The position numbers were made by a program, and so were the translations under genes. Shown piece by piece: positions 25,243-63,264 of a DNA stretch of 64,000 nucleotides (within the stretch, counting starts at the first letter, position 1; every line of letters begins with the position of its first letter). Origin of the DNA: an uncultured Alphaproteobacteria bacterium (GTDB lineage: Bacteria; Pseudomonadota; Alphaproteobacteria; CBDUZE01). Location: positions 92,960 to 156,959 of the forward strand of contig CBDUZE010000002.1 of the NCBI GenBank assembly GCA_965371625.1, written 5' to 3'. The notes beneath the pieces are model-generated. The model did not search any database. It had not been told where the DNA came from and saw only the letters and a program-made list of their open reading frames with translations.

Positions 25243-26256
25243 TCAGGCGATGGTGCGTGTTTGCTGGGCGAAGATCCTGTGGCTCGCGCCGACCACAACG
25301 GCGTAGTAGCTCAGCGTCAGCAGCACCCAAAGGAGGGTCTGCTGGGGCCACGCCAGGGCCATCAGATTGGGCAGCGCCACCATCGCCAGGTAGACCGGCA
25401 AGGCCCGGCGCCAGGGCATCAGCCGCTCGAGAATGTGGTGCAGGTGGTCGCGGTCCGAGGTGAACGGCGAGCGGCCGCGCAACACCCGGGTTGCCATCAG
25501 GCGCAGACAATCCACCACCGGCACCAGGAACCAGAGCGCCACGATGTCGGCGGGCAAGGTCGCGAAGTTGACCTGATAGCAATAGATCGCCAGGAGACCG
25601 ACGGCGATGCTCAGCGAGTAGGTCCCGGAATCACCCAGGAACAGGCGCCCCGTCAGGTTGAAGACGAAACCGATGGCAAGCGTAATGGCGAGTACGGCGA
25701 GCAGGGGATAGAGGTGCCCCGGCGCGTAAGCGAACAACAACATGGTCCACACCAACGACAGCCCGAGCACCAGCCCGTTCTTGCCGTCCGCCATGTTGAC
25801 CGCGTTCTGCAGCCCCACCAGGCAGAGCAAGGTGAAGATCGGCCCCACCCAGCCGTCGAGGAACAGGGCCCGAGGCAGGAAGCTGAACTTCAGGAACGAG
25901 ATCTCGAAGGCGGGGACCGAAAGGATCACTACCAGTCCCAGGGTGAAGGACGCCGCCAGCCGCCATACCGGTCGAATGTGCTTGCGGTCGTCGACGAAGC
26001 CGAGCCCCAGAAACGCCGCTAGCGCCACCAACAAGGTGACGTAAAAGGGTCCGAACTCGGTGGTGGCGGCCTGGATCGCGGCCATCGCGCAGACCGAGAC
26101 CATGATCGCCAGCCCGCCGACCAACGGAGTCGGGCGATCGTGGGTCTTGCGCTGGCCGTCGGGCAGGTCGACGACGCGCAGCCAGCCGCCCACCGGGGTC
26201 GCGAACGCACACACCAGGAGCGTGAACGCGCCCAGCCCCAAATAAGCCGCAATCAT
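25243..26256 (-). CDS. Glycosyltransferase family 4 polyprenyl-phosphate N-acetylhexosamine-1-phosphate transferase (WecA/WbpL-like initiating enzyme)
   Basis: Polytopic. Motifs VDDRKHI and NAVNMADGKNGLVLGL (MraY/WecA signature). The ORF-track first codon is TTG, so the internal ATG (MIAAYLG...) was used. Confidence 0.75.
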   Translation of the reverse strand: MIAAYLGLGAFTLLVCAFATPVGGWLRVVDLPDGQRKTHDRPTPLVGGLAIMVSVCAMAAIQAATTEFGPFYVTLLVALAAFLGLGFVDDRKHIRPVWRLAASFTLGLVVILSVPAFEISFLKFSFLPRALFLDGWVGPIFTLLCLVGLQNAVNMADGKNGLVLGLSLVWTMLLFAYAPGHLYPLLAVLAITLAIGFVFNLTGRLFLGDSGTYSLSIAVGLLAIYCYQVNFATLPADIVALWFLVPVVDCLRLMATRVLRGRSPFTSDRDHLHHILERLMPWRRALPVYLAMVALPNLMALAWPQQTLLWVLLTLSYYAVVVGASHRIFAQQTRTIA

Positions 26257-26356
26257 TTGGAATTGCAGTCCAGTCCCAACCCGGTCGGCATCGGACGCCA
26301 ACGGCGATGCCTTGTCAAGGCCAATGATCGCCCGAATCCGGCGCGATTCGGGGCGC

Positions 26357-28192
26357 TCAGTCGGGCTCGAAGGCCGCGCGATAGTCGCGCTTCAGCTTGG
26401 GATCCTGGTGGTCTTTCTCGAGCAGGCAGTTGCCGGCGATCAGCACCTCGACCTCGGTGCCCATGAAGCAGCGAAAAGCGTCCTCGGGCGTGCACACGAT
26501 GGGCTCGCCGCGCACGTTGAAGCTGGTGTTGACGAGCACCGGGCAGCCGGTGCGCGCCTTGAAGGCGCTGATCAGGGCGTGGAAGCGCGGGTTGGTCGGC
26601 TGGTGCACGGTCTGCACCCGGGCCGAGTGGTCGACATGGGTGACCGCCGGGATCTCCGAGCGCGGCAGCTTGAGCTGCTCGATGCCGAAGAGCTCGGCGT
26701 CGGCGGCGCCGGTCTCGCGCCAGCGCTTCTTGGCGACGTCCGCCACCAGCAGCATGTAAGGGCTGTCGCCATCGAGCTCGAACCATTCGGCGACGTCCTC
26801 GCGCAGCACCGCCGGCGCAAAGGGGCGGAACGATTCCCGGTACTTGACCTTGAGGTTCAGCACCGACTGCATGGTCGGCGAGCGGGCATCGCCGAGGATC
26901 GAGCGCGCGCCCAGCGCCCGCGGCCCGAACTCCATGCGCCCCTGGAACCAGCCCACGGCCTTCTGATCGACGAGCGCCTGGGCGCCGGCCTCGATGAGGC
27001 CCTCGTCGTCGAGCACGGTGAAGTTGGCGCCCGCTTCGCCGAGCCGGCGCTCGATTTCGGCCTGATCGAACGAGGGCCCGAGATAAGCGCCCTTCATGGC
27101 GTCGAGACCCGGTGTCGGGGTCCGCCCCTGGTCCTGAAACAAGTGATAGGCGCAAAGCGCCGCCCCCAGCGCCCCACCGGCATCGCCCGCCGCCGGCTGG
27201 ATCCACAGCCCCGCGAAGCGGCCCTCCCTTTGCACCTTGCCATTGGCCACGCAGTTGAGCGCCACGCCGCCGGCAAGGCACAGGTTGCGCGAGCCGGTCT
27301 CGGCCGAGAGCGCGCGGGTGAGGCGCAGCACCACCTCCTCGGTGACCGCCTGGATCGAGGCCGCGAGGTCCATGTGGCGCTGCGTCAGCGGCTCGCCGGG
27401 AGCGCGCGGCGGGCCCCCGAAGAGGCCATCGAAGCGGCCGTTGGTCATGCTCAGGCCGGTGCAGTAGTCGAAGTAGGCGAGGTCGAGCCGGAACGAGCCG
27501 TCGGCCTTGAGATCCATGAGGTTGTCGAGGATCGCCTGGCTGTAGCGGGGTTCGCCATAGGGCGCCAGCCCCATGACCTTGTATTCGCCGGAGTTGACCT
27601 TGAACCCGGTGTAATAGGTGAAGGCCGAGTACAAGAGCCCGAGGGAATGGGGAAAATGGATCTCGCGCAGCATCTCGAGCCGATTGCCCCGGCCCCAGCC
27701 GACCGAGGTGGTGGCCCATTCCCCGACTCCGTCCATGGTGAGGACCACCGCCTCCTCGAAGGGCGAGGGGAAGAAGGCGCTGGCGGCGTGGCTCTGGTGG
27801 TGCTCGGCGAACAGCAACCGGCCCGCCCAATCGAAATCGGGAGCGTAACGCTCGAGCTTGCCACGCAGCAGGCTCTTCTGAAAGAGCTTCTCCTTGAGCC
27901 ACAGCGGCAGCGCCATGCGGAACGAGGTGAAGCCCCTGGGCGCGAACGCCAGATAGGTCTCGAGCAAGCGCTCGAACTTGAGGAACGGCTTGTCGTAGAA
28001 GGCCACGAAGTCGATCTCGTCGAGGCCCAGACCGGCCTCCTCGAGGCAGTATTCGATGGCCCTCTCGGGGTAGCGCGAATCGTGCTTCTTGCGACTGAAG
28101 CGCTCTTCCTGGACGGCGGCGACGATCTCGCCGTCCGCGATCAGGGCCGCGGCGCTGTCGTGGTAGAAGGCCGAGACCCCGAGGATGCGCAA
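26357..28192 (-). CDS. Carbamoyltransferase (NodU/CmcH/SxtI family)
   Basis: TTG start giving LRILGVSAFYHDSAAALIADGEIVAAVQEERFSRKKHD..., the canonical carbamoyltransferase N-terminus. Length 612 aa. Confidence 0.8.
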   Translation of the reverse strand: MRILGVSAFYHDSAAALIADGEIVAAVQEERFSRKKHDSRYPERAIEYCLEEAGLGLDEIDFVAFYDKPFLKFERLLETYLAFAPRGFTSFRMALPLWLKEKLFQKSLLRGKLERYAPDFDWAGRLLFAEHHQSHAASAFFPSPFEEAVVLTMDGVGEWATTSVGWGRGNRLEMLREIHFPHSLGLLYSAFTYYTGFKVNSGEYKVMGLAPYGEPRYSQAILDNLMDLKADGSFRLDLAYFDYCTGLSMTNGRFDGLFGGPPRAPGEPLTQRHMDLAASIQAVTEEVVLRLTRALSAETGSRNLCLAGGVALNCVANGKVQREGRFAGLWIQPAAGDAGGALGAALCAYHLFQDQGRTPTPGLDAMKGAYLGPSFDQAEIERRLGEAGANFTVLDDEGLIEAGAQALVDQKAVGWFQGRMEFGPRALGARSILGDARSPTMQSVLNLKVKYRESFRPFAPAVLREDVAEWFELDGDSPYMLLVADVAKKRWRETGAADAELFGIEQLKLPRSEIPAVTHVDHSARVQTVHQPTNPRFHALISAFKARTGCPVLVNTSFNVRGEPIVCTPEDAFRCFMGTEVEVLIAGNCLLEKDHQDPKLKRDYRAAFEPD

Positions 28193-28206
28193 AGCCGTCC
28201 CAAGCC

Positions 28207-28356
28207 TCAGAAGATGGTGTAGATGAAGGGCGCCACGGCGCTCCCCTGGGCCAGCACCAGGAGCCCGCCAAAGATCAGCATCACCAGGAGGACCGGCATC
28301 AGCCAGTACTTCTTGCGCACCCTCAAGAACAGCCACAGCTCGGCGAGAAAGGACAC
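28207..28356 (-). CDS. SxtK-like/DUF5989 small membrane protein (49 aa, GTG start)
   Basis: (M)SFLAELWLFLRVRKKYWLMPVLLVMLIFGGLLVLAQGSAVAPFIYTIF matches the conserved small partner of carbamoyltransferases. Confidence 0.6.
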   Translation of the reverse strand: MSFLAELWLFLRVRKKYWLMPVLLVMLIFGGLLVLAQGSAVAPFIYTIF

Positions 28357-28367: not shown

Positions 28368-28790
28368 TCAGAACTGGTGACGCATGCTCTCGGGCGCCGG
28401 ACCCGGCGGGCGGCGCTCGATCCAATAGCTCTCGGCCTCGGGCTCGAACCGCCGCCTCAAGGGGTCCTTGCCGAGGAGCCGCATCACCAGGGCCGTCGGC
28501 GTCACCGCGAGGTAGAAGATGACGGCCATGACCAGGGGGTTGGTGAGGCGGTGGAGAACGAGGCCCAACCTCGCCCAGGCGCGGTTCAAGGGCGCCAGCA
28601 CGCGGGGCCGCGCCAGCGCCGCCACCAGGAAGAGCGCCGCCAGCAGGCCCAGCCACCAGCGCGGCGGCGCGCCGTCGAGCAGCGGCCACAGCGCCAGCCC
28701 GCCGAGGACGACGGCGAAAACCAGGCCGAAGGACCGTTCCGAAGATGCTTTCGTCTCGTCTCGTCCGCTGAAGTCTTCGTGCGCGCTCAA
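28368..28790 (-). CDS. SxtJ-like small membrane protein (TTG start)
   Basis: ...SSERSFGLVFAVVLGGLALWPLLDG... two-TM pattern typical of SxtJ-family proteins found beside carbamoyltransferases. GAGG upstream of the TTG. Confidence 0.55.
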   Translation of the reverse strand: MSAHEDFSGRDETKASSERSFGLVFAVVLGGLALWPLLDGAPPRWWLGLLAALFLVAALARPRVLAPLNRAWARLGLVLHRLTNPLVMAVIFYLAVTPTALVMRLLGKDPLRRRFEPEAESYWIERRPPGPAPESMRHQF

Positions 28791-28974
28791 GGTATTGACC
28801 TCGCCAGCCCGGGCAAGCCCGCCACTGGGGGCCTTCCTTAGCCCCTCGCGGCGGCGATTACAACGCCACCATGGCGCGCCGGCCGGGCGACGCGGCGAGC
28901 GCCGGAGCGGCGCCACGCTCCCGCGCCTCGTCCAGCGGCTCGGGCCAAGCGCCTGAACGCGGTTCCATCTTCCT

Positions 28975-29007: not shown

Positions 29008-30675
29008 TCACCAGGGCGCCAAGTCCAAGCGCGCCAGCATCTGCCGCTTGGCGCCGGAGGCCGTCTTTTCCTCGATCAGCTCGCCCTTGGTGTCGAAGGC
29101 CCTGACCGTCACGGCGTGGTTCGCCTTGTCGACGTCGATGCGGCAATAGTTGTCCTTCTGGGTGAAGTTCCAGGCCCGGTAATTCATCTCGACGCCGCCC
29201 GAGAGCGAAAACGGATCGCTCTGCCCGGGTTTCCGTGAATCGTGGACGTAGTGCGAGGGCTCGCCGTCGGCGAACCAGAAGGGCCAATAGAAGGCCGACG
29301 AGGTGATCGCGAACGCCTTGATCGCGGCGGCCGCGTCGGAGCCGGAAAAATCCATCTCGGCCACGTTGGAGCAGTGGATGTCGCCGGAGACGAAGACGAC
29401 ATTCTGAATTTCCTGCTCGACGATGCGGTCCAGGAGCGCCTTGCGGGTTTGCGGGAAGCCCGGCCAGGAGTCGGTCTGTTCCATTCGCTTGGGGCTCGAT
29501 CCGGCCCGCGCCAGCATCGGGTTCGGCACGAAGACGCTCGACGAGACGATGAACTTGGGAACGTTGCCGCTCTCGTTCTGCTCGGTCTCGAGCCAGGCCA
29601 GCAAATGGTCGAGCTGATTCGGCTCGTCGGAGTCCAGCGAGGGACGGCCGAGCAAGTGATTGTCGTCGAGGCTGTCCTCGATATCGTCCATGTATCGCTG
29701 GGTGCGGGTATCGAGGACGAAGAACGGATAGCCGTCGCAATCGAAACGGCAGAACAGCCGGTTGTCGAAATCTCGCGGACCGTGGCTCCACTGGTAGCTC
29801 ATGTAGGCGCCGATCGCGAGGTTGAAGAGCCGCCGTTTTTCGCTCTTGCGGATGCGGTCCTGGCTCCAGTTGTCCTCGATCTCGTGGTCGTCGAGGATCA
29901 TGTAGGTGGGCACCAAGCGCAAAAGCTTGCGCATGTTGGTGGAGCCGAAGGCCTTTAGGTAGCGGTCCTGGAACTCTTCGTAGGTGTCGGCGAGTCCGAT
30001 TGGGATATGCCGATTGAGCATGTCGGCGTAGATCTGATCGCCGACCATGAGCACGAAGCTCACCGGCATGCCGTCGACCTCGGCCCGGACCTCCTCCCTG
30101 AGCGGGCGGAAGATCTGGTCGGCCTGCTTGACCTTCCATAGCAGGCCGGGATAGCGGCACGAGCCGACGATGAAGCTCAGTTGGTCGAGCGGTGCTTCGG
30201 CGGCGACCCGGAAGGTGCGCAACACCGCCTCCGATTTCTTGGCCGGCAAGTTCTCGAGTTCCTGGCGCCAGATCTCCGGGCTCGGCAAGCGGTCGACCAG
30301 ATCGTCACTCTCGACGATCTCGTCGTCGCTGAAGGGGTCGTCGATGGTCAACGTACCGATGCGCACGTGATACTTGGAATCCGCATCGAGCGGGTAGACC
30401 TCGCCGCGCTCGCCGAGACCGCGCTCTTGGCCCAGGTCGAACGACCCGGTGCGATCGTATTCGCGGCGCAACCGGAAATAGAACACCGGCGGCTCCGCGA
30501 TCTCGGCGTCATTCTTCTTCAGCACCGTGAGGACGCCGACGGTGCGGCGTTCGGACGACAGGCTCGCGCCCTCGTCTCCCGGATCGCCGGCGCGGATCCA
30601 GAGCCGGCAGGAGTTGGTCGTGGTGTGTCCTATGATTGGGCCCAGCCCGGGCGCACGTAAACTGCTCATGTTCAC
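29008..30675 (-). CDS. PhoD-like phosphatase (alkaline phosphatase D family metallophosphatase)
   Basis: Motifs FIVGSCRYPG, GDQIYAD, LDDHEIEDNW. GGGAGGTG RBS 5 nt before the ATG. Confidence 0.75.
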   Translation of the reverse strand: MNMSSLRAPGLGPIIGHTTTNSCRLWIRAGDPGDEGASLSSERRTVGVLTVLKKNDAEIAEPPVFYFRLRREYDRTGSFDLGQERGLGERGEVYPLDADSKYHVRIGTLTIDDPFSDDEIVESDDLVDRLPSPEIWRQELENLPAKKSEAVLRTFRVAAEAPLDQLSFIVGSCRYPGLLWKVKQADQIFRPLREEVRAEVDGMPVSFVLMVGDQIYADMLNRHIPIGLADTYEEFQDRYLKAFGSTNMRKLLRLVPTYMILDDHEIEDNWSQDRIRKSEKRRLFNLAIGAYMSYQWSHGPRDFDNRLFCRFDCDGYPFFVLDTRTQRYMDDIEDSLDDNHLLGRPSLDSDEPNQLDHLLAWLETEQNESGNVPKFIVSSSVFVPNPMLARAGSSPKRMEQTDSWPGFPQTRKALLDRIVEQEIQNVVFVSGDIHCSNVAEMDFSGSDAAAAIKAFAITSSAFYWPFWFADGEPSHYVHDSRKPGQSDPFSLSGGVEMNYRAWNFTQKDNYCRIDVDKANHAVTVRAFDTKGELIEEKTASGAKRQMLARLDLAPW

Positions 30676-31558: not shown

Positions 31559-32143
31559 ATGGACCTGAAGACTTTTTACGATGCCGAGTTCGCCGAGCAC
31601 GAGGCGGTGCTGCGCGCCACCCTCGAGGCGGTGCGGGCGCCTTTCGCGCGGCTCTTGGAGATTTGCGCCGAGGCGATCCGCGCGGGCCACAAGATCGTCC
31701 TCTTCGGCAACGGCGGCAGCGCCGCGGACGCCCAGCACCTGGCCACCGAGCTCACCGTGCGCTACCGCAGCGAGCGCCCGGCGATCGCCGCCCTGGCGCT
31801 GACCACGGACAGCTCGGCGCTGACCGCGATCGGCAACGACTTCGGCTTCGAGCGGATTTTCGCGCGCCAGCTCGAGGCCCTCGGCAAGGCGGGCGACGTG
31901 GCCCTCGCCATCACCACCTCGGGGGCCAGCGAGAACGTCATCCTGGGCCTCGAGAGCGCCCGCGGGCTGGGGCTGGTTGCGGCCGCACTCGCCGGCCATG
32001 ACGGCGGCCGGCTGGTGGGCCTCGCCGATCCGCTCTTGATCGTGCCGTCCAGGACCACCGCGCGCATCCAGGAGATGCACATCCTCCTGGGCCAGATGCT
32101 GTGCGCGGCGCTGGAGATCGAGCTCGGGCTGGTCGAGGGTTGA
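31559..32143 (+). CDS. gmhA: D-sedoheptulose-7-phosphate isomerase (SIS domain)
   Basis: IVLFGNGGSAADAQHLATEL ... ITTSGASENV are SIS/GmhA signatures. Length 194 aa. Confidence 0.85.
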   Translation: MDLKTFYDAEFAEHEAVLRATLEAVRAPFARLLEICAEAIRAGHKIVLFGNGGSAADAQHLATELTVRYRSERPAIAALALTTDSSALTAIGNDFGFERIFARQLEALGKAGDVALAITTSGASENVILGLESARGLGLVAAALAGHDGGRLVGLADPLLIVPSRTTARIQEMHILLGQMLCAALEIELGLVEG

Positions 32144-32357: not shown

Positions 32358-33380
32358 ATGGAGCTATTCGGCAAAGATTTGGATCACGAGATCGCCCTCG
32401 TTGCCGAGATCGGCGTCAACCACGAGGGCGACGTCGAGAAGGCCTCAGAGCTGGTGCGCCTGGCTTCGGAGTCCGGGGCCGACGCGGTCAAGTTCCAAAG
32501 CTTCACCCCGGCGCGCTACGCCTCGGCCTCGGATCGGGCGCGGCTCGCCCGCGTCACCGGCTTCGCCCTCGACGAGGCGGCGCACCGGCGGCTGGCGGCG
32601 GAGGCGGCGAAGCTCGGCGTGGTGTTCTTCTCGACCGCGGTCTCCGAGGACCTGGTCCCGCTCCTGGCCGAGATGTGCCCGGCGATCAAGATCGCCAGCG
32701 GCGACCTCGACTTCGAGCCGGTGATCCGCGCCGCGGCGGCGACCGGCAAGCCGCTGATCATCTCCACCGGACTCGGCACCCTCGACGAGGTCGACCAGGC
32801 GGTGGATTGGGTGCGCGACGAGGTCGGCGCGGCGGCGCTGCCCGAGCGCCTGGTGCTGCTGCAGTGCGTGAGCGCCTACCCGACACCCGTCGAGGAGGCC
32901 AACGTGCTCGCCGTGCCCTTGCTCGCCGAGCGCTACGGCGTCCCGGTCGGCTTCTCCAACCACGTGCTTGGGCCCGAGGCCTGCTACGCGGCGATCGCCC
33001 ACGGCGCCAGCCTGATCGAGGCCCATTTCACCGACGCCAAGGCGGGGCGCTCGTTCCGCGACCACGAGCTCAGCTTCGAGCCCCAGGAGTTCGCGACGCT
33101 GGCCGCGGCCGCGCCCAGGATCCGCGCCGCTCTGGGGAGCGGCGCCAAGGAGCGCCAGCCGAGCGAGAGCGCTATCCTGGCAGCGGTGCGCAAGGGCGTG
33201 GTGGCGGCGCGCGACCTCCCGGCCGGACACGAGCTCGCGGCCAAAGACCTGATGTACGCACGCCCGGCGACCGAGTTCGCGGCCCATGAGCTCCCCACCC
33301 TGGTGGGGCGGCGGCTGGTGGCGGCGGTGGCCACGGGCGAGCTCATCGCCCGCGACAACGTGGCAGGGGTCAAGTCTTGA
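32358..33380 (+). CDS. neuB: NeuB-family nonulosonic acid (sialic/legionaminic/pseudaminic acid-type) synthase with a C-terminal SAF domain
   Basis: HEIALVAEIGVNHEGD...AVKFQSF...FFSTAV... TIM-barrel motifs plus an SAF-like C-terminus. Confidence 0.8.
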   Translation: MELFGKDLDHEIALVAEIGVNHEGDVEKASELVRLASESGADAVKFQSFTPARYASASDRARLARVTGFALDEAAHRRLAAEAAKLGVVFFSTAVSEDLVPLLAEMCPAIKIASGDLDFEPVIRAAAATGKPLIISTGLGTLDEVDQAVDWVRDEVGAAALPERLVLLQCVSAYPTPVEEANVLAVPLLAERYGVPVGFSNHVLGPEACYAAIAHGASLIEAHFTDAKAGRSFRDHELSFEPQEFATLAAAAPRIRAALGSGAKERQPSESAILAAVRKGVVAARDLPAGHELAAKDLMYARPATEFAAHELPTLVGRRLVAAVATGELIARDNVAGVKS

Positions 33381-48887: not shown

Positions 48888-48891
48888 GGCC

Positions 48892-52516: not shown

Positions 52517-52553
52517 CGGCGACTCCGCGGTAACCGCCGCGCGGTCGGGCGTG

Positions 52554-55726: not shown

Positions 55727-56797
55727 GTGTCGACATCCTCGCCACCGTTTCGGGAACCGGATCTCTCGAGCTTGCCGACGTTGTGCCCAGAAGCGTTGGA
55801 GCGGCTGGTCTACCTCGTCGGTCCGGCGCGCGGGGGCACCTCGATCATCAACGAGGCGATCGGCATCCACCCTGAGGTTCTAGGGCTGCCGAACATGAGC
55901 CATTTCGTGAACAACGTCTGGAACCACCGCGCCAAGGTGAGCGCCAAATTGTTCCGGACCATCTTTCGGTTTCCGCGGTACTTCGAGCTGCCGGAGCTCC
56001 TCGAGACGCTGTCGGCGGAGCAGGCGGAAATGCTGGCCCGACACGTGGTGCGGACCGTCAACGCCCGGCACAAGGACTTCCGCCGGCTTTACCAGCTCTA
56101 TCCGCTGCTCTATGCAATGACGGCGGCGAACCGGAAGGATCCGGCGCGCATCGTCTGCTGGCACGACAAGAGCAACGACTGGCGCAATATTCGGCCGGTG
56201 GCCCGGTATCTTCCCGAAGCGCGCTTCGTCTTCGTGACCCGCGACCCGCGCGGATCGACCGCCTCGTATGCCGATCGCATGACGAAGAAGACGGTTCGCG
56301 ACGTTACGGCCGGTAGGAACGTCCACGACGTGATCGACGGGGCCGTGTACTGGCGGATCATGATGGAGCAATTCCGGAGCTTCGCCCGAAGGCGGCCGGG
56401 CCGCTCCCTCTTGGTGCGTTTCGAGGACTTCATGCAGAAGCCCGAGTCGACCTTGAACCGTATCTTCGAGTTCGCTCTCGGCAGCCCGTTGCCGGACGAG
56501 GTCGTGCGCCAAGGCCTGGCGCGCCTCGGCGGCGGCGCCACCAACGACCCCAACGAGCTCTACCGCGGCATCAGCAGCGCACCGCTCGAGCGCTGGAAAG
56601 ACCACTTGAGCGAGGACGAGGTCGCCCTGATCGCGGCCATCGCCGGCGACACTGCGCGCAAGCTCGGTTACCCGATCGAGCCGGCGGCGTCGGCGACCAC
56701 CATCCTGCGGGTGGCCCGGCGGTTGAGCGGCGTGCGGCGCAAGACGATGTTCGGCGCCAAGATGCTCTACGCCAATGCCGTGCCCTTCATCGCTTGA
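55727..56797 (+). CDS. Sulfotransferase-family protein
   Basis: GPARGGTS PAPS-binding 5'-PSB-like loop and the overall sulfotransferase pattern (RDPR...). Confidence 0.6.
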   Translation: MSTSSPPFREPDLSSLPTLCPEALERLVYLVGPARGGTSIINEAIGIHPEVLGLPNMSHFVNNVWNHRAKVSAKLFRTIFRFPRYFELPELLETLSAEQAEMLARHVVRTVNARHKDFRRLYQLYPLLYAMTAANRKDPARIVCWHDKSNDWRNIRPVARYLPEARFVFVTRDPRGSTASYADRMTKKTVRDVTAGRNVHDVIDGAVYWRIMMEQFRSFARRRPGRSLLVRFEDFMQKPESTLNRIFEFALGSPLPDEVVRQGLARLGGGATNDPNELYRGISSAPLERWKDHLSEDEVALIAAIAGDTARKLGYPIEPAASATTILRVARRLSGVRRKTMFGAKMLYANAVPFIA

Positions 56798-56856
56798 ACG
56801 TCGACCAGCCTCGCCGCTCACCCGGCGCCTGGAACAATGAGGTTTGAAGCGGCCCG

Positions 56857-57756
56857 ATGACCGCGCTGCCCTGCATTCACATCGGTTATCCCAAAGCGGC
56901 CAGCAAGACGCTGCAAAACGGGCTCTTCGAGCCCCACTCGCAGATCGAGTGCGTCGGCAAGCCCTTCAAGAGCGAGAAAATCGAGCACTGGCTGGCCTCG
57001 ATCCACGCTCAGGACACGATCGAGTTCGATCCCGAGGCGTGCCGACAAGGGTACGAGGCCATCATTGCGCCGCTCATGTCCGGCACCAAGCCCCTGGTCG
57101 TCACGTTCGAGCTCTTCACATTGCCCAATCACGCCGACCGCGGTGTCGTCGCCCAGAGGCTCCGCGATCTCTTTGGCGAGGCCAAGATCATCGTCAACAT
57201 CCGCAGTCAGCCGGACTACTTGCAGTCGATGTACAGGTTCCAGTGGGGCCGGGCCAAGCATTCCTACTCGTTCCAGGAATACCTTGACGAGTACTGGGAC
57301 AACCGCGCCAACGGTTTCGTCTTCCACCTCGACTACTACAAGCTGATCAACGTCTACGCACGTCTCTTCGGGCGGCGGAACATCGGCGTCTTCCTGTTCG
57401 AGGAGTTGGCCCGCGATGCGGAGGGCTACGCCCGGAGGATGTGCGACTTCATCGGCGTCGACGCCGAGGAGGGCGTCCGGCACCTCGCCGGCAGGCACGA
57501 CAACCGGGGCCCGAGCGCGGCGCTCTCGGCCTACACCCGCATTCGCAAGTTGGTGCTGCCACAGGTACGCGTAAGACGGTTCGTGCCCGCGAACATCGCC
57601 GACGGCTTCAAGGAGCTTCTCAACAGGGGCCCCCGAGCGAACGTGAGAGCCTCGGCGGCTCAGCTCGAAGCGGTGGGGGCCCGTTTTCGCGACAGCAACC
57701 AGCGTCTGGCCCGCGAGTACGCCTTGCCACTCGAGGACTACGGATATCCCCTGTGA
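56857..57756 (+). CDS. Sulfotransferase-family protein
   Basis: IHIGYPKAASKTLQ 5'-PSB-like motif and a 3'-PB-like RSQPDY region. Confidence 0.55.
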   Translation: MTALPCIHIGYPKAASKTLQNGLFEPHSQIECVGKPFKSEKIEHWLASIHAQDTIEFDPEACRQGYEAIIAPLMSGTKPLVVTFELFTLPNHADRGVVAQRLRDLFGEAKIIVNIRSQPDYLQSMYRFQWGRAKHSYSFQEYLDEYWDNRANGFVFHLDYYKLINVYARLFGRRNIGVFLFEELARDAEGYARRMCDFIGVDAEEGVRHLAGRHDNRGPSAALSAYTRIRKLVLPQVRVRRFVPANIADGFKELLNRGPRANVRASAAQLEAVGARFRDSNQRLAREYALPLEDYGYPL

Positions 57757-57890
57757 GGCGCGGTCGGAGCCCTGCCGCCCAATCCCGCCGGCACCCCCCG
57801 GCGGCGGCGCGCCTGCCTGTTCGCGGAGACGGCCGATGCCGCCACGCAGCGCTCACCGGGTGTCTGATGCATCGCGGCTAATTCGCCACC

Positions 57891-59402
57891 ATGCTTTTCA
57901 ACTCGTTCGAGTTTATCCTGGTGTTCCTGCCGATCGTGCTGATCGGCGCGTACCTTCTGCTGCGCTCCGGCAGGGTGTCTACCACCATGGGCTGGGTGGT
58001 GGTGTGCTCGCTCGCCTTCTATGCCTATTGGAACCCGGCCCATATCTGGGTGATTACCTCGTCGCTGCTGATCAACTTCGGCCTGGGCAGCAGCATCTCG
58101 CGCCACTGGGAGCGGGCGGGCACGAAGCGATTGCTGCTGTTCGTTGGCGTCGCCTTCAACCTGCTGCTGTTGGGCTATTTCAAGTACCTCGGCTTCTTCG
58201 AGAACGTCTTCACGGTCCAGGAGGCCACCGATTTCACCAGCTTCATCGTCAGCCGGGCCCTGCCCATCGGCATATCCTTTTATACCTTCCAGCAGATCGC
58301 CTTCCTGGTCGACTGCTACCGCGGCTACCGCTGGACCTACAACCTCGTCGAATATGCCTTCTTCGTCACCTTCTTCCCGCAACTGATCGCCGGCCCGATC
58401 GTCCACCACGCCGAGGTCATTCCGCAGGCCAGGCGCATTGCCGAGCGGGTGCTGGGTTCGAACTATGCGGTGCGCTACTTGGCCCCGGGTCTCATCGCGT
58501 TCACGCTCGGTCTCGGGAAGAAGGTCGTGCTGGCGGACACCTTCGGCGGCTTCGCCGACAAGGCCTTCGGGGCCGCGCTCGCGGGACCGGTGAGCTTCCT
58601 CGAGGCCTGGGGTGGGGCCAGCGCCTATGCGTTTCAGATTTACTTCGACTTCTCCGGCTACTCCGACATGGCGATCGGTCTCGGCCTCTTTTTCGGAATT
58701 CGGCTTCCGGCCAATTTCTTGTCACCTTACAAAGGGAGATCCATCATCGATTTTTGGCGTCGCTGGCACATCACGCTGTCGCGCTTTCTGCGCCACTACC
58801 TCTACATCCCACTGGGCGGGAATCGTAAGGGCCCGGCTCGGCGCTACGTCAACCTGCTGGCGACGATGATACTCGGTGGATTCTGGCACGGCGCCAACTG
58901 GACCTTCATCCTCTGGGGGATGATCCACGGCGTCCTGCTCGCCCTGAACCACGGGCTGCGCAAGTTCTGGTCGTGGCGTCCTCCGGTGGCGCTGGGAATA
59001 GCCGCCACCTTCATCTTGGTGGTCTTCGCCTGGGTGCCGTTCCGGGCCGACAACCTGGAGGTGACCTGGAACTTCTACACGGCCATGGTGGGCACGCACG
59101 GCATCGCGGTGCCTGGACGCTACGAGGCCGTGATCACCCTGCTGGGGCCGCTTGCCAGGTGGCTCAACGTCCATACCGGCGTGGTCGCGAATCTGGGCGG
59201 CCTGCAACAGGTCGCCTGGACCGCGGTCGGGGCGATCATCGTGTTCGTTTTGCCCAACACCATGTGGCTCATGGATCGCCGGCGCTGGCGCTGGCTGCTC
59301 ACGAGCCGGTCGGTGCCGGCGTGGGGCGGCTTCGTCCTGGCGTTGTCTCTGGCGATCATGTTCTTCGGCCGGAACACGACCTTCCTCTATTTCCAGTTCT
59401 AG
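57891..59402 (+). CDS. MBOAT-family membrane-bound O-acyltransferase (AlgI/DltB-like)
   Basis: Polytopic. Conserved FWRRWHITLSRFLRHYLYIPLGG histidine motif. Confidence 0.85.
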   Translation: MLFNSFEFILVFLPIVLIGAYLLLRSGRVSTTMGWVVVCSLAFYAYWNPAHIWVITSSLLINFGLGSSISRHWERAGTKRLLLFVGVAFNLLLLGYFKYLGFFENVFTVQEATDFTSFIVSRALPIGISFYTFQQIAFLVDCYRGYRWTYNLVEYAFFVTFFPQLIAGPIVHHAEVIPQARRIAERVLGSNYAVRYLAPGLIAFTLGLGKKVVLADTFGGFADKAFGAALAGPVSFLEAWGGASAYAFQIYFDFSGYSDMAIGLGLFFGIRLPANFLSPYKGRSIIDFWRRWHITLSRFLRHYLYIPLGGNRKGPARRYVNLLATMILGGFWHGANWTFILWGMIHGVLLALNHGLRKFWSWRPPVALGIAATFILVVFAWVPFRADNLEVTWNFYTAMVGTHGIAVPGRYEAVITLLGPLARWLNVHTGVVANLGGLQQVAWTAVGAIIVFVLPNTMWLMDRRRWRWLLTSRSVPAWGGFVLALSLAIMFFGRNTTFLYFQF

Positions 59403-60602
59403 GTGCCTGCGGTGGTGGCCAAACAGGGACGAAAGGGAGCTTTCCTCGCCAGGTACCTAGCTTCCTTCGTCGTGTCGGGCCTGCTCTTCGTCGCTATCCT
59501 GGTAGTCTTTCTCGCCGCCACGAACGAGCTGTTCGTGTTCAGCCGAGACAACATAGAGACCGACGAGGACCTGTTGTGGGGAGCGGCATTCGGCCAGTCG
59601 CATGACGCCTACAAGCTTGCCAGGGCGCGCTACACGAAGCCGGACCTGTTGATCGTGGGGTCATCGCGCGTGACTCAGTTTCGCGATGTTATGGCCCCCG
59701 GCGCGCGTTTCTACAATGCCGGCCAGGTGAGCGACGCCTTCACCTCGACATTCCGTTTTCTGACCAACCTGTATCAATATCACAAACCTAAAGTGGTTAT
59801 CCTCGGCATAGATCCCTGGTGGTTCGATCCCGGCAGGCAGGACGATTGCGTTGTCGATAGAAGCGTGTGCTTCCGCCAAATCGATTTCGACTACCGAGGC
59901 CTAGTCACGGCAGCGGTGGCGGAGGGTTTCAAGCCAAGAATCCTCCTCGCCACCCTGCGCGGCAAGGTGCGGTTCGAGGAGGACTTTCTCGGCCACAGGC
60001 GTCCCGTCGGGCTGCGCGCCGCCACCACGGGGCAGGGCTTCCGACCCGACGGCAGCGACCAGTTCGCTGCCGTCGTGCTCAATGAATCGTTCTACAGACG
60101 GTGGGACGGTTACGGATATGATGACGGCTTCCGGTTCCACCGCCGTTTGATCGAGAACCACAAGGGTCGCTTCTCCTACACCGGACCTTTGTCGCAACCG
60201 GTCAAAGAGCTGTTCCGTGATATTCTGAGATTCAATCGTCAGAACGATGTAAATACCGTCATCTTCCTACCACCTATCTCTAAGTTGATATACGAAGTAA
60301 TAAACCGCAGCCCCGAACATCGAAAATACATCGCAAGATTTGAAAGAACAGTAGATTTTATTTGTCGGAGCGAGGGTATACCTTTTTTCAATTTCCAAGA
60401 TATTATGACTCTCGAACTTACGGACGAACACTTTTACGACGGTGTCCACGGAGACGAGGTTGTTTATCTAGAAATAATGCGGAAACTTACCGCTAACGTA
60501 CCGGAGCTACAAAGCCTCATCGATGTCGACCAGCTCGAAAGAACCGCAGTTCAAATGCGTTCCGAGAAGAGCCGTTACAATTTCTACACACTCCTCCGTT
60601 GA
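59403..60602 (+). CDS. AlgJ/AlgX/DltD-like accessory protein for MBOAT-dependent O-acylation (N-terminal TM anchor)
   Basis: Translationally coupled to the MBOAT gene. A single N-terminal TM. Assignment rests mainly on gene context. Confidence 0.4.
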   Translation: MPAVVAKQGRKGAFLARYLASFVVSGLLFVAILVVFLAATNELFVFSRDNIETDEDLLWGAAFGQSHDAYKLARARYTKPDLLIVGSSRVTQFRDVMAPGARFYNAGQVSDAFTSTFRFLTNLYQYHKPKVVILGIDPWWFDPGRQDDCVVDRSVCFRQIDFDYRGLVTAAVAEGFKPRILLATLRGKVRFEEDFLGHRRPVGLRAATTGQGFRPDGSDQFAAVVLNESFYRRWDGYGYDDGFRFHRRLIENHKGRFSYTGPLSQPVKELFRDILRFNRQNDVNTVIFLPPISKLIYEVINRSPEHRKYIARFERTVDFICRSEGIPFFNFQDIMTLELTDEHFYDGVHGDEVVYLEIMRKLTANVPELQSLIDVDQLERTAVQMRSEKSRYNFYTLLR

Positions 60603-61123: not shown

Positions 61124-62092
61124 ATGAACGGCGAAACTTCAGTTTCCGGTAAGTTGAAGTTCATCCGTAGCCGCGACATAATCTATCGTTATGTTCTGCC
61201 ACGCCTTCCCGAGAGCTTCACTGGGTTCGCACGGAATAACCGCGCTTTACGGCAGGTCTTCTATACATTCCTCAAAATCACTCGGGCAAAAGACATAGAC
61301 CGTTCGATAAATCTAGGGACAATACCAAAATCTGGAACGAATTATTTCTTACAGTTTCTTGGGAACTACTTGCTTGTATTATACGAAAATCGAGACCACC
61401 CACTGCTCAATCGGGAGATTCAGAGGATATTCACGAACAATCGGCCTTCAATCATTCGAGGGCATAGAAAATACAAGAAATCTCATCCTGTGTTTTCAAA
61501 GACACCCTACGCAGATCTCTATTATGGTCACGATATAGTGTTCCTAGAGTATGTAAAAGGAAAGACAATAATATTATACAGAAATCCGCTAGATTATTTG
61601 GTTTCTTGGTATTATTACAGATATAAGAAGCGAGGAAGTGACACGACGCTGGAAGAGTGCGTTCGTGATTGGCTTCCACGGTGGATTGATAGGTATTTGA
61701 AGATTAGAGAATTACAGCATAGGCCAAACGTTCTCGTCGTCGCCTACGAGGATCTGGTATCCCAACCTGAACAGGTGTTCTCTGGGATATTGGAATGGTT
61801 AAACATTCCAGTTCGCCGCGATGCAATGAGAAGAGCTCTTGAGTTCGCGAGCATGGATACACTAAGAAGGGAGGAGGTCGAACACGGTCCAATCCAGGGT
61901 CTAGAAAGGTTTGAAGGATCGTTCATTCGATCGGGAAAGATTGGCGACTGGAAGAAAGAGATCGATTCCACGCTCGTGGCGTTGATATCAGAAGAGCTAC
62001 GGAGTCACGGCATTGAGCTCTCCGAATTCATTCTCACGTCGCCGCCCGCCGCCGAGGCTCAGCAGAAGTCGACTCGCGGGAATAACGGATAA
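61124..62092 (+). CDS. Sulfotransferase-family protein (low-GC, likely horizontally acquired)
   Basis: TIPKSGTNYF is the canonical 5'-PSB motif. Codon usage is AT-rich, unlike the neighbouring genes. Confidence 0.65.
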   Translation: MNGETSVSGKLKFIRSRDIIYRYVLPRLPESFTGFARNNRALRQVFYTFLKITRAKDIDRSINLGTIPKSGTNYFLQFLGNYLLVLYENRDHPLLNREIQRIFTNNRPSIIRGHRKYKKSHPVFSKTPYADLYYGHDIVFLEYVKGKTIILYRNPLDYLVSWYYYRYKKRGSDTTLEECVRDWLPRWIDRYLKIRELQHRPNVLVVAYEDLVSQPEQVFSGILEWLNIPVRRDAMRRALEFASMDTLRREEVEHGPIQGLERFEGSFIRSGKIGDWKKEIDSTLVALISEELRSHGIELSEFILTSPPAAEAQQKSTRGNNG

Positions 62093-62136
62093 CAGCGCGC
62101 TTCGGCTGTCATCGGAAAGATGCTTAGGGATTAGCG

Positions 62137-63264
62137 GTGGTGGGTTACAAGGACTGGCTCCGGCACATTGCCTTCGAACGCCAAGCAGACCTGCCCGCAC
62201 CATACCGGCAGGCGGTCTTCGACGAGGGATTGAGAGCGCACGACGAGGTCGTGCGGGCGCGTGGCCTCGAGATTCGGAAAGTCTTGGTTATCGGCGGCGC
62301 GGGCTACATCGGCACGGAGTTGACGAGTCACCTCTTGGACCACGGCTATCTGGTGCGCGCCACGGATGCCTTGCTGTATGACAACCACGTCTGCGTCCTG
62401 CCGTTTCTACGCCGCGCTAGCTACGACTTCATGTACGGTGACCTCGTCGATACCGAATTCAACGCCAAGACTTTAGAGGGAGTCACCGATGTCGTGATTC
62501 TGGCTGGATTGGTCGGCGACCCGATCACCAGGCGATATCCTGAAGCATCCGAAAAAATTAACGCGGAGGGAATAAGGCGTCTGATAGATCAGCTCGATGG
62601 CTGTGGACTCAATAAGGTAATATTCGTTTCTACTTGCTCGAACTACGGGTTCATGTCAAACGATGAGATCGCCGATGAAGACGCCAATCTGAAACCGTTA
62701 TCGCTTTACGCAGAAGCGAAAGTCAAAGCGGAACGACATCTTTTGTCTCTCAAAGGTAAAGTCGACTATCACCCGATCGTTTTGCGGTTCGCGACCGCCT
62801 TTGGACTGTCGCCACGGATGCGCTTCGATCTTACGATCAATGAATTTACCCGGGAAATTTATTATGGAAACGAGCTCTTGGTGTATGACGCGGAGACCTG
62901 GCGACCGTACTGTCATGTAAACGATTTTGCCCTGGTTATCCGGCGCGCCTTGGAGGCGCCTATCGAGCGGGTCAGCTTTGAGATATTCAATGCGGGAGGA
63001 GAGGCAAACAACCTCACAAAGAGAATGGTTGTGGAAACGATCCTGGGTTTTCTGCCAGGTGCGAGTGTACGATATCAAGCGCACGGTGGAGATCCTCGGA
63101 ATTACCGAGTGAATTTCTCGAAGATCAGGAAAATTCTTTACTTCGAGACGACTTACAAGGTGGAAGACGGCGTTCGGGAGCTCATTACCGCGTTGGAACA
63201 GAATTTGTTCCGGCGGGTCGATGAGAACCGCCGCTTCTACGGTAACTACGAGATTGAGTACTGA
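62137..63264 (+). CDS. NAD-dependent epimerase/dehydratase (SDR family); start uncertain (possible GTG at 62251)
   Basis: VLVIGGAGYIGTEL glycine motif and YAEAK (Y-x3-K). Confidence 0.7.
   Translation: MVGYKDWLRHIAFERQADLPAPYRQAVFDEGLRAHDEVVRARGLEIRKVLVIGGAGYIGTELTSHLLDHGYLVRATDALLYDNHVCVLPFLRRASYDFMYGDLVDTEFNAKTLEGVTDVVILAGLVGDPITRRYPEASEKINAEGIRRLIDQLDGCGLNKVIFVSTCSNYGFMSNDEIADEDANLKPLSLYAEAKVKAERHLLSLKGKVDYHPIVLRFATAFGLSPRMRFDLTINEFTREIYYGNELLVYDAETWRPYCHVNDFALVIRRALEAPIERVSFEIFNAGGEANNLTKRMVVETILGFLPGASVRYQAHGGDPRNYRVNFSKIRKILYFETTYKVEDGVRELITALEQNLFRRVDENRRFYGNYEIEY

Follow-up and report, generated by a model that had tools for sequence, protein, structure and literature searches.

In a window of 64,000 nucleotides from an uncultured alphaproteobacterium (contig CBDUZE010000002.1, positions 92,960 to 156,959 of the forward strand) we analysed a long run of sugar-modifying genes, which starts next to a tRNA-Gln gene at 25.1 kb and extends beyond the end of the window at 64 kb. 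Judged from its gene content we consider it, on balance, probable that this region is a composite cell-surface glycan island around nonulosonic acids (NulOs) of the 5,7-diamino type that are activated with cytidine monophosphate (CMP). The combination of genes appears unusual, yet it would be a variation on a known locus type, and its chemistry is predicted. Genes were called by the frame signal of the GC content at third codon positions (GC3) and then analysed by profile searches against Pfam and NCBIfam. An original prediction for the same stretch had listed the gene classes of a sulfated, carbamoylated and acetamidino-modified NulO polysaccharide, and the profile searches recovered every one of these classes at its place. 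Absent from that list were the SxtJ-like, PhoD-like and nitrile-hydratase-alpha-like (NHase-alpha-like) genes, a 383-aa protein with a 2-epimerase fold and the tRNA-Gln gene. All features are compiled in Table 1.

NulOs, nine-carbon sugars that resemble sialic acids, shape how phages, hosts and neighbours perceive bacteria. Environmental biofilms contain abundant sugars of the legionaminic acid (Leg) and pseudaminic acid (Pse) type as well as sulfated glycoconjugates, and according to the authors of that work the sulfotransferase genes are largely unidentified (PMC10483923). Sulfotransferases embedded in a NulO locus are concrete candidate enzymes for the sulfation of NulOs or other glycans in bacteria. 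The locus further provides testable hypotheses for two widespread unannotated families, the 2-epimerase-fold proteins and a family of KpsC-like GT-B proteins of ~500 aa. In addition, a pair of genes encoding an amidotransferase of the NASAT family and an amidase could explain the ammonia source of PseA/PtmG-type enzymes that come without HisH/HisF.

Predicted nonulosonate synthesis in the window and past its right edge

The synthase encoded in the window is a non-canonical member of the NeuB family. It matches NeuB of Neisseria meningitidis in the PDB (2.8e-36), and its scores stay below the equivalog cut-offs of both NeuB (TIGR03569, 260 bits, cut-off 400) and PseI (TIGR03586, 199 bits, cut-off 340). 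Orthologues with 59–70% identity are present in the four related loci L001, L002, L003 and L013. A scan of the genome collection with this protein gave three relatives at 59–70% and no match above 70% identity, and an exact-sequence look-up returned no record. Both cytidylyltransferases are recognised by PF02348 only, with weak matches to KdsB models and none to PseF, and lie below the KdsB and PseF equivalog cut-offs. Since the NeuB-like protein and both cytidylyltransferases remain below these thresholds, the in-window route is not the standard Leg or Pse pathway. On the model of the LegB-type 4,6-dehydratase (TIGR04180, cut-off 475) the two SDR proteins reach 66 (SDR1) and 53.6 bits (SDR2), and neither is an orthologue of LegB. 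The Pse equivalogs are not reached either, with 292 and 214 bits on the PseC model (cut-off 423) besides the PseI score given above. No window protein gave a profile match to PseF, PseG, PseH or PseB of the PF02719 type, and no NeuC/LegG was found among them by profile search.

SDR2 and the LegC-family aminotransferase following it, which is cut by the window end, belong to a flanking set of NulO genes. A full-length homologue of this LegC (P0241, 94% identical) scores 535 bits (cut-off 420). P0241 comes from a close metagenomic relative of the window (ENA ERZ23486246), of which two scaffolds from the same sample were compared: scaffold_499 (L017) matches window positions 39468–57853 at 95.3% nucleotide identity, and scaffold_460 (L099), which carries P0241, matches positions 60965–64000 at 90.6%. 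The gene order around SDR2 is the same in L099. LegG, LegI, LegH and LegF, none of which lies inside the window, are found directly downstream of LegC in this scaffold. The order there is NeuC/LegG (453 bits, cut-off 236), a cytidylyltransferase fragment, NeuB/LegI (471 bits, cut-off 400), a NeuD/LegH acetyltransferase (225 bits, cut-off 161), a PtmE-like CBS-nucleotidyltransferase, a Gfo-like protein and a CMP-transferase, followed by a PtmA-like short-chain dehydrogenase, a third NASAT (373 bits; PtmG-like), HisF and HisH. Judged by gene order and profile scores, this is the leg/ptm arrangement of Campylobacter, a canonical Leg operon with LegC as its first clear member. If this relative is taken as a guide, the source genome would carry two NulO synthases and the island would extend at least 10 kb past the window. 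The cytidylyltransferase fragment between LegG and LegI (L099 5027–5392, 121 aa; PseF model, N-terminal 90 residues) would seem to be what is left of a pseudogene.

The right-edge operon thus corresponds in type to the leg/ptm pathway of Campylobacter jejuni and C. coli, with the LegB-position SDR and LegC located in the window and the remainder in the 90–95% identical relative. In Campylobacter, PtmG and PtmH make Leg5Am7Ac and its N-methyl form, and PtmH adjoins PtmG; the methyltransferases of the window likewise adjoin a NASAT. In contrast to Campylobacter, however, most of the operon lies outside the window, SDR2 reaches no more than 53.6 bits with the LegB model, the NeuB-like route of the window is not an orthologue of this pathway, and there are no Maf or flagellar genes nearby. 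We favour a Leg-type over a Pse-type reading because of the LegC-family gene at the right edge, the presence of a 2-epimerase-fold protein and not of PseG, the higher scores on the NeuB model than on the PseI model, and the full canonical Leg operon in the 90–95% identical relative.

The closest known system is the poly-legionaminic O-antigen locus of Legionella pneumophila. The O-antigen cluster of serogroup 6/12 gives rise to a homopolymer of a 5-acetamidino-7-acetamido NulO (legionaminic or 4-epi-legionaminic acid) and encodes a 'capsule polysaccharide biosynthesis protein' beside NeuB, together with a cytidylyltransferase, HisF/HisH, a WbpG-like protein, DegT, a methyltransferase and oxidoreductases (PMC3694923). 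Shared with the window are NeuB, the CMP-transferase, DegT, a GNAT or other acetyltransferase, HisF/HisH with a WbpG-like NASAT, the methyltransferase, Gfo-type oxidoreductases and the capsule protein. Beyond this mix the window adds three sulfotransferases, a carbamoyltransferase with an SxtJ-like protein, AsnB, the NASAT-amidase pair, a second and non-canonical synthase route and the 2-epimerase-fold family. Its exporter is of the MsbA/PglK type, whereas Legionella uses Wzm/Wzt, and for O-acylation it has an MBOAT protein with an SGNH-like partner in place of the Lag-1-type acyltransferase of Legionella.

The 383-aa protein is probably a candidate for an NDP-sugar (nucleoside diphosphate sugar) hydrolysing 2-epimerase, which would supply the missing step of the NeuC/LegG type. 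It has no Pfam or NCBIfam match at E ≤ 0.001 and accordingly does not belong to PF02350 or TIGR03568 by profile. Its structure was modelled with AlphaFold2 (pLDDT 94.9), and all of the top 50 Foldseek matches in the PDB are UDP-sugar 2-epimerases, including NeuC and SiaA (E = 5e-14, TM score ~0.65). The family has more than 600 homologues, all of them unnamed or 'hypothetical' in their sources and a few with a faint PF02350 match. The family profile matches a WbpI-type epimerase at E = 0.012, with a conserved LHPK aligned to the HP motif of the epimerase. The motifs EDPG, GxSE and RLHP are invariant, and the genes are nearly always located within a module of DegT, CTP_transf_3, Gfo, the 383-aa family itself and GNAT. 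Alternatively, the protein may act as a glycosyltransferase.

In the window this module (module B) comprises DegT2, CTP2, Gfo2, the 383-aa gene and GNAT2. It is found with 50–67% identity in the unrelated contigs L014, L015 and L016, and in the same order but minus GNAT2 in L018. Module B adjoins a myo-inositol-1-phosphate synthase and a B12-binding radical SAM enzyme in L014 (14703–21005) and lies near an inositol monophosphatase in L015 (2099–2851). These neighbours are hints that some versions of module B may use cyclitols or unusual precursors. For the Gfo and DegT proteins we also considered an amination at C-3 before the condensation. This was rejected on chemical grounds, as an acetamido group at C-3 of the hexose would block ring closure of the NulO pyranose.

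The inositol-related neighbours bear on a further explanation, according to which the region would make a secreted small molecule (aminoglycoside-, aminocyclitol- or nucleoside-like) with carbamoyl and sulfate groups as tailoring and the ABC protein as its exporter. Pairs of Gfo/Idh/MocA and DegT proteins are reminiscent of aminocyclitol synthesis with its inosose dehydrogenase and aminotransferase steps, the best NCBIfam match of Gfo1 is inositol 2-dehydrogenase (120 bits), an amidase and an NHase-like ORF are present, and carbamoyltransferase, SxtJ-like protein and sulfotransferases co-occur in saxitoxin clusters. We nevertheless regard this explanation as very improbable: NeuB, the cytidylyltransferases, the WecA-like protein, the NASATs with HisH/HisF and the KpsC-like GT-B protein are hallmarks of envelope glycans, the canonical Leg operon is contiguous, no scaffold enzyme (sugar-phosphate cyclase, polyketide synthase or nonribosomal peptide synthetase) is present, and a NusG paralogue heads the operon of L001. 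The aminocyclitol reading of the Gfo and DegT pairs is kept only at low probability because the inositol-related neighbours of L014 and L015 are absent from the window.

Amidotransferases and their probable ammonia sources

Within the NulO island the original prediction had grouped AsnB, HisH and HisF paralogs as the set that forms an acetamidino group. Acetamidino-forming enzymes are indeed present, but AsnB is not a member of the WbuX/Y/Z set. The NASAT of that set is WbuX, and two copies of it are encoded in the window. WbuX1 adjoins HisH and HisF. HisH scores above its cut-off; HisF scores best on the WbuZ model, where its 233 bits are below the cut-off of 299.7. The adjacency of WbuX1, HisH and HisF is shared with WbuX/WbuY/WbuZ of Escherichia coli O145 and WbpG-HisH-HisF of Pseudomonas aeruginosa O5, whereas the second NASAT of the window is partnered by an amidase-signature enzyme and not by HisH/HisF. 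The substrate of the acetamidino set in the window is probably a NulO rather than one of the hexosamines or uronic acids.

Both NASATs carry the PP-loop SGGKDS and the tetracysteine motif CxxC...GVCxxC. A PP-loop SGGxDS and a tetracysteine CxxCxn[GN]xCxxC define the family, which was described structurally on the Legionella enzyme (PMC10607449). WbuX2 matches the crystal structure of the L. pneumophila NASAT (PDB 8wex) at 6e-41. AsnB has an N-terminal Cys2 and an SGGIDS PP-loop, and directly follows the NeuB-like gene in all four relatives that have this gene at 59–70% identity (L001, L002, L003 and L013). AsnB-like enzymes make uronamides in O-antigens, and by analogy we infer that AsnB would amidate a carboxylate of the product.

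A metagenome scan with WbuX2 returned 80 loci (L019–L098), of which 61 had enough downstream sequence and 35 were long (at least 10 kb). An amidase-signature gene is located directly downstream of the WbuX2 homologue on the same strand, mostly overlapping with it, in 60 of the 61 loci, and HisH/HisF matches were present in 2 of the 80. NeuB homologues were found near the WbuX2 homologue in 23 of the 35 long loci. In the window the genes of WbuX2 and the amidase overlap by 41 nt, and WbuX2 is not paired with HisH/HisF. The window amidase retains the signature residues, and among solved structures it is closest to malonamidase E2 and to GatA, which serves the tRNA amidotransferase as glutaminase subunit. 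The amidase probably supplies ammonia to the WbuX2 clade of NASATs and would replace WbuY/WbuZ; deacylation of a sugar is an alternative role. We found no description of a NASAT-amidase pairing in the literature searched.

A more far-reaching interpretation, which we put forward tentatively and doubt rather than expect, is that the in-window operon is an undescribed NulO pathway. It would consist of the NeuB-like synthase, an obligately linked AsnB, a NASAT with HisH/HisF, methyltransferases, the 2-epimerase-fold family, the extra Gfo, DegT, GNAT and CTP proteins and a linked sulfotransferase. The resulting NulO would be amidated (as a C-1 carboxamide or an amino-acid amide) as well as amidino- and O-sulfo-modified, with a charge pattern unlike that of known sialic-acid-like sugars. 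In the same interpretation NASAT and amidase would form a new two-component amidotransferase, in which an amidase-signature glutaminase takes the place of WbuY/WbuZ.

Predicted decoration, transfer and export of the glycan

The original prediction had allowed that its sulfotransferase ORFs might turn out to belong to unrelated P-loop families. Such a reassignment was not borne out: all three score above the Pfam gathering cut-off and each has both binding motifs for 3'-phosphoadenosine-5'-phosphosulfate (PAPS), one for the 5'-phosphosulfate and one for the 3'-phosphate. None of the three matches an NCBIfam sulfotransferase model. In both L001 and L003 the gene immediately upstream of the NeuB-like one encodes a homologue of sulfotransferase 1 (ST1) with 35–41% identity. 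The predicted carbamoyltransferase is likewise supported by its family models, with Carbam_trans_N and Carbam_trans_C both above cut-off and 154 bits on the NodU model (cut-off 1000), and homologues adjoin NeuB in L024 and L026. In the literature searched we found no description of a NulO locus with sulfotransferases or a carbamoyltransferase. Rhizobia with NodH, LpsS and NodU offer a comparison, as the window also combines PAPS-type sulfotransferases with a carbamoyltransferase of the NodU family, all with a bacterial glycan as their expected target and in a genome that resembles those of alphaproteobacteria. In contrast to the rhizobial systems the NodU score is far from the cut-off (154 versus 1000 bits), there is no NodABC, and the context is a NulO locus.

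The proposed MBOAT/AlgJ-like pair held for its first member (116 bits on PF03062), but its AlgJ-like partner has no profile match. This 399-aa protein is recognised by motifs only, namely GSS and DGVH besides an N-terminal membrane helix, and gave no sequence match in the PDB. In the close relative the pair is deleted. Positions 1–326 of L099 correspond to 57801–58125 of the window and positions 323–3359 to 60965–64000. The relative therefore lacks window positions 58126–60964, so that nearly all of the MBOAT gene and the entire partner gene are gone and a 34-codon remnant is left, with a CACGA microhomology at the junction. Scaffolds 499 and 460 both break exactly at this deletion point. Since the pair is deleted in the relative, the predicted O-acylation is a variable trait. 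This variation between window and relative recalls Legionella, where lag-1 O-acetylation varies between strains.

The 498-aa protein encoded at the end of the first plus-strand operon had been described as a KpsS/C-like capsule protein. Its PF05159 match is above the cut-off, but marginally so (21.8 versus 20 bits). An AlphaFold2 model (pLDDT 87) shows a GT-B fold, and about 40% of its homologues carry PF05159. Compared with the PDB, the family profile gave KpsC beta-Kdo transferases as sole meaningful matches (E ~0.1; Kdo, 3-deoxy-D-manno-oct-2-ulosonic acid), and the shared family motif GTAGfEAxxxGKPV aligns to the KpsC motif TSQYGFEALLAGKPV. A fold search with the model gave generic GT-B matches at a TM score of ~0.25 and was not used for assigning the donor sugar. 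Single-sequence PDB searches yielded nothing useful for this protein, the 383-aa protein or the 399-aa protein. The GT-B fold, the marginal PF05159 match and the motif are points of resemblance to the KpsC/KpsS beta-Kdo transferases, and a CMP-ulosonic-acid donor is plausible. The 498-aa protein is, however, very distant from them and has a single domain of ~500 aa, no KpsM/T/E/D genes accompany it, and the donor would be a nonulosonate instead of Kdo. In L018 an ABC exporter of the type found in the window directly follows the GT-B gene.

Together with the WecA-like protein, the KpsC-like GT-B protein makes up the two transferases of the window. The exporter scores 302 bits on the PglK model (cut-off 1000) and 284 bits on the MsbA model, both below the cut-offs. 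It is the sole transporter in the window and of the fused MsbA/PglK type; neither a Wzm/Wzt ABC-2 exporter nor a WaaL-type ligase as in Legionella was found in the window. A PglK-type flippase can serve a complete O-antigen, as in Helicobacter pylori.

With two transferases and no Wzy or Wzm/Wzt in the window, the product could also be a short NulO-capped oligosaccharide, which is built on undecaprenyl phosphate and flipped by the PglK-like ABC protein. A ligase or an oligosaccharyltransferase from elsewhere in the genome would then pass it on en bloc, either to a lipooligosaccharide core or to proteins (flagellin, pilin, S-layer). The best NCBIfam match of the exporter is PglK, the flippase for lipid-linked oligosaccharides in Campylobacter, and the flanking Leg operon corresponds to the ptm type of Campylobacter (PtmE-, PtmA- and PtmG-like), which serves flagellin glycosylation in that genus. 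We consider this explanation unlikely. The PglK score is far below its cut-off and nearly equalled by that of MsbA, no Maf, PglB, PglL or flagellar genes are present in the window or the related loci, one KpsC-like or polysialyltransferase-like enzyme can polymerise, and the Legionella locus, which makes a homopolymer, is similar in gene content.

For the favoured NulO glycan we propose the following route. An NDP-activated N-acetylhexosamine (NDP-HexNAc) would be dehydrated, transaminated and N-acylated, after which the 2-epimerase-fold protein would release the 2-epimerised free sugar. The NeuB-like enzyme would condense this sugar with phosphoenolpyruvate, and the product would then be CMP-activated. 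The NASATs would turn N-acetyl into acetamidino groups with ammonia tunnelled from HisH/HisF or given by the amidase, a methyltransferase may N-methylate the amidine, and AsnB would amidate a carboxylate. On the lipid side, the WecA-like enzyme would prime undecaprenyl phosphate and the KpsC-like GT-B protein would attach a single NulO residue or many of them. In the cytoplasm, the sulfotransferases and the carbamoyltransferase would modify free hydroxyl groups, and the ABC exporter of the PglK/MsbA type would flip the lipid-linked product. In the periplasm the MBOAT protein and its partner would O-acylate the glycan, and a ligase encoded elsewhere would join it to lipid A-core or another acceptor.

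Several points weigh against this reading. The NeuB-like protein, both cytidylyltransferases, SDR1 and SDR2 stay below the equivalog cut-offs, so that these models assign no substrate to them. Module B occurs without a NeuB within 10 kb in L014 and L018 and therefore may not be dedicated to NulO synthesis. The link of the 498-aa protein to KpsC is weak by each measure given above (21.8 bits, profile E ~0.1, TM score ~0.25), and since the window encodes a single non-initiating transferase and lacks Wzy, Wzx, Wzm/Wzt and a ligase, a polymer is only a predicted product. For the sulfotransferases and the carbamoyltransferase the acceptor may be other than a NulO; the nearby GmhA-like gene could mean a heptose acceptor, and O-carbamoyl heptose occurs in the lipopolysaccharide core of P. 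aeruginosa. Furthermore, the left-arm genes, from the WecA-like to the NHase-like gene, are not conserved with the core in other genomes. Finally, the chemistry is predicted from sequence alone and the organism is uncultured. Of the 'heavily decorated legionaminic/pseudaminic-acid-type polymer' of the original prediction, the NulO glycan locus with acetamidino enzymes stands, with the Leg type favoured. The single decorated polymer is a matter of prediction, as only two transferases are encoded. A single sulfated, carbamoylated, acetamidino NulO polysaccharide is accordingly to be read as a prediction and not as a finding.

Conservation, composition and layout of the locus

A conserved core of the locus was found in L001, from a metagenome-assembled genome (MAG) of the Hyphomicrobiales, and L003, from a proteobacterial MAG. 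Both share the order sulfotransferase, NeuB-like, AsnB, HisH, HisF, WbuX, methyltransferases, GNAT, Gfo, DegT, SDR and CTP. Identities are mostly 47–75% but lower in the case of the sulfotransferase and of the second methyltransferase, and L013 retains most of the order. The L001 operon follows a MarR-type regulator and a NusG paralogue, and L003 has two ORFs that correspond to these two by position and size only. Long polysaccharide operons typically have such a NusG paralogue at their head. Like the left arm, the MBOAT pair and sulfotransferases 2 and 3 are not conserved with the core. The GmhA-like gene is not kept in the related core loci either. A route in which a heptose from the GmhA-like enzyme is passed to the NeuB-like enzyme and yields a ten-carbon acid was set aside because the gene is absent in all of them.

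This distribution bears on whether the 39 kb are one functional locus. They could instead be several adjacent, independently acquired cassettes for different glycans, namely the left arm (here WecA-like, carbamoyltransferase/SxtJ-like, PhoD-like and also GmhA-like, for a heptose- or HexNAc-containing glycan), the NeuB-like/AsnB/NASAT operon, a block of sulfotransferases and MBOAT and the canonical Leg operon, in which case 'one heavily decorated polymer' over-reads the locus. The left-arm genes are absent from L001, L003 and L013, the 35 long NASAT-amidase loci have no match to sulfotransferase, MBOAT or WecA, the strand switches at 31.5, 51 and 53.8 kb, several genes have a foreign base composition, the MBOAT pair is dispensable in the relative, and a second NulO synthase, LegI, probably lies beyond the window in addition to the one inside it. 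On the other hand, the position of the sulfotransferase gene in L001 and L003, immediately upstream of the NeuB-like one, ties sulfation to the NeuB-like pathway, and carbamoyltransferase homologues stand beside NeuB in L024 and L026. The genes are also tightly packed with overlaps at 31.6–51.0 kb and 53.9–60.6 kb, and the relative holds the whole order at 95% identity. We take separate cassettes into account as a possibility without thinking them probable, and continue to prefer one composite NulO island.

The base composition was assessed for each gene. The window has a GC content of 66%, and real genes show a GC3 of ~0.9. Outside a group of four low-GC genes GC3 ranges from 0.82 to 0.96, and for most genes from 0.86 to 0.96; within the group the values are 0.73 (49467–50963), 0.66 (59403–60602), 0.50 (61124–62092) and 0.64 (62137–63264). 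The two GC dips described before are thus real and coincide with genes, but the second one reaches ~63.25 kb, beyond the end given for it, and the foreign base composition suggested for parts of the locus agrees with the GC3 values. The low-GC genes, together with an O-acylation pair that is present in one strain and absent in another, indicate that genes were exchanged in modules and that the antigen varies at strain level.

The left arm, from the WecA-like gene to the NHase-like ORF, is encoded on the minus strand. It is followed by the first plus-strand operon (31559–50963), which is tightly packed with frequent overlaps, by the minus-strand pair of WbuX2 and amidase (51167–53720) and by a second plus-strand run from 53935 to the window end, past which the locus continues. 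Counts from promoter and terminator scans were not above those of shuffled controls and were not used for operon boundaries. Long gene overlaps of 32–52 nt were observed for SDR1/CTP1 (42774–42825), methyltransferase 1/GNAT1 (38734–38765) and WbuX2/amidase (52554–52594). For CTP1 the overlap appears real, since the shorter start set by a metagenome gene caller would remove the conserved nucleotide-binding N-terminus. The tRNA-Gln(UUG) gene is located 115 bp from the WecA-like gene and is a plausible integration site or island boundary. In the NHase-alpha-like ORF the last 40 residues match models of nitrile hydratase alpha and NHLP leaders; neither a beta subunit nor maturation genes for ribosomally synthesized and post-translationally modified peptides were found near it.

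Table 1. Features of the glycan island, with window coordinates, strand and the profile, structural or motif evidence for each
Feature	Position	Strand	Evidence
tRNA-Gln(UUG)	25055..25128	-	ARAGORN; abuts left edge of island
WecA-like polyprenyl-phosphate HexNAc-1-P transferase (GT4/MraY family), putative initiator	25243..26301	-	PF00953 80.5 bits; TIGR02380 118.7, cut-off 326
O-carbamoyltransferase, NodU/CmcH/TobZ type	26357..28336	-	PF02543 354.9 bits; PF16861 246.3 bits
SxtJ-like small membrane protein, carbamoyltransferase partner	28368..28916	-	PF19588 33.7 bits, cut-off 24.4
PhoD-like metallophosphatase	29008..30675	-	PF09423 90.6 bits
Orphan NHase-alpha-like ORF, 216 aa	30874..31524	-	PF02979 63.8 bits, C-terminal 40 residues only
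GmhA-like SIS-domain sugar-phosphate isomerase	31559..32143	+	TIGR00441 179.9, cut-off 209; PRK13936 184.5, cut-off 276
Non-canonical NeuB-family nonulosonate synthase	32358..33380	+	PF03102 201.8 bits; SAF PF08666 30.4 bits
AsnB-type glutamine-dependent amidotransferase, predicted carboxamide former	33461..35314	+	TIGR01536 409 bits, cut-off 267
HisH/WbuY-type glutaminase	35311..35931	+	TIGR01855 225 bits; ATG at 35311
HisF/WbuZ-type glycosyl-amidation protein	35936..36682	+	TIGR03572 (WbuZ) 233 bits; AglZ/HisF2 model 187 bits
NASAT copy 1, WbuX1 (WbuX/WbpG/PseA family)	36657..37829, start approximate	+	TIGR03573 336 bits, cut-off 203
SAM-dependent methyltransferase 1	37890..38765	+	PF13489, PF08241; 60–64% identical orthologues in L001, L013
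GNAT N-acyltransferase 1 (GNAT1, WecD-like)	38734..39543	+	PF00583; PRK10975 63 bits
Gfo/Idh/MocA sugar dehydrogenase 1 (Gfo1)	39540..40541	+	PF01408, PF02894
DegT-family aminotransferase 1	40562..41716	+	PF01041 373 bits; PseC model 292, cut-off 423
SDR epimerase/dehydratase 1 (SDR1)	41746..42825	+	PF01370 135.7 bits; LegB model 66, cut-off 475
CTP_transf_3 cytidylyltransferase 1 (CTP1)	42774..43556	+	PF02348 72.4 bits; KdsB matches weak; PseF none
SAM-dependent methyltransferase 2	43569..44615	+	PF13489; 63% identical orthologue in L013
DegT-family aminotransferase 2 (DegT2, module B)	44656..45954	+	PF01041 296 bits; 65% identical orthologues in L014, L015
CTP_transf_3 cytidylyltransferase 2 (CTP2, module B)	45957..46697	+	PF02348 85.7 bits; 65–67% identical orthologues in L014, L015
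Gfo/Idh/MocA oxidoreductase 2 (Gfo2, module B)	46694..47722	+	PF01408; 54–57% identical orthologues in L014, L015
383-aa family, NDP-sugar 2-epimerase fold, candidate NeuC/LegG-like step (module B)	47736..48887	+	no Pfam match; AlphaFold2/Foldseek
GNAT N-acyltransferase 2 (GNAT2, module B)	48871..49470	+	PF13302 76 bits
498-aa GT-B protein, low GC, distant KpsC/KpsS relative, putative CMP-nonulosonate transferase/polymerase	49467..50963	+	PF05159 21.8 bits, cut-off 20
Amidase-signature enzyme, putative ammonia donor	51167..52594	-	PF01425 248 bits; PDB matches malonamidase E2, GatA
NASAT copy 2, WbuX2	52554..53720	-	TIGR03573 300 bits, cut-off 203; PDB 8wex 6e-41
ABC exporter, fused transmembrane and nucleotide-binding domains (TMD-NBD), PglK/MsbA type, putative lipid-linked glycan flippase	53935..55722	+	PF00664, PF00005
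Sulfotransferase 1 (ST1)	55727..56797	+	PF13469 67.8 bits, cut-off 27; GPARGGTS, RDPRGSTAS
Sulfotransferase 2	56857..57756	+	PF00685 38.0 bits, cut-off 22; YPKAASKT, IRSQPDYLQS
MBOAT membrane O-acyltransferase (DltB/AlgI-like)	57891..59402	+	PF03062 116 bits; DltB model 152.6, below cut-off
Membrane-anchored SGNH/DltD/AlgJ-like MBOAT partner, 399 aa, putative	59403..60602	+	motifs only
Sulfotransferase 3, AT-rich DNA	61124..62092	+	PF00685 77.7 bits, cut-off 22; PKSGTN, RNPLDYLVS; GC 0.46
SDR epimerase/dehydratase 2 (SDR2), LegB position of flanking Leg operon, low GC	62137..63264	+	PF01370 114 bits; LegB model 53.6
LegC-family aminotransferase, cut by window end	63281..64000	+	TIGR04181 308.8 bits over 206/359 model positions

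Upstream of the island the window contains a tandem duplication with a period of ~1584 bp (20793–23982), in which positions 20793–22184 equal 22377–23768 at 99.3% identity and a further partial copy (23792–23982) is 93% identical. The repeats yield two 380-aa genes of the DUF2336/SpbR family (20993–22135 and 22577–23719) with identical Pfam scores. The duplication could be a recent event or an assembly artefact. The interval from the DUF2336 duplicates to the glycan island contains a plus-strand gene (23703–24278) that overlaps the third repeat copy in part. It encodes a 191-aa protein with a ThsB-like TIR domain (PF08937, 57 bits) and may be a stand-alone gene of the defence type.

Near the left end of the window, a minus-strand region of lower GC content (2953–6995, 55–63%) contains the genes for two proteins, a beta-propeller protein of 562 aa that carries LDL-receptor class B/NHL repeats and a NosD-like protein of 456 aa with a right-handed beta-helix. 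These genes follow type II secretion/pilus genes, a secretin (10–1629) and a T2SS-K-like gene (1706–2776), and both proteins may be secreted and glycan-active.

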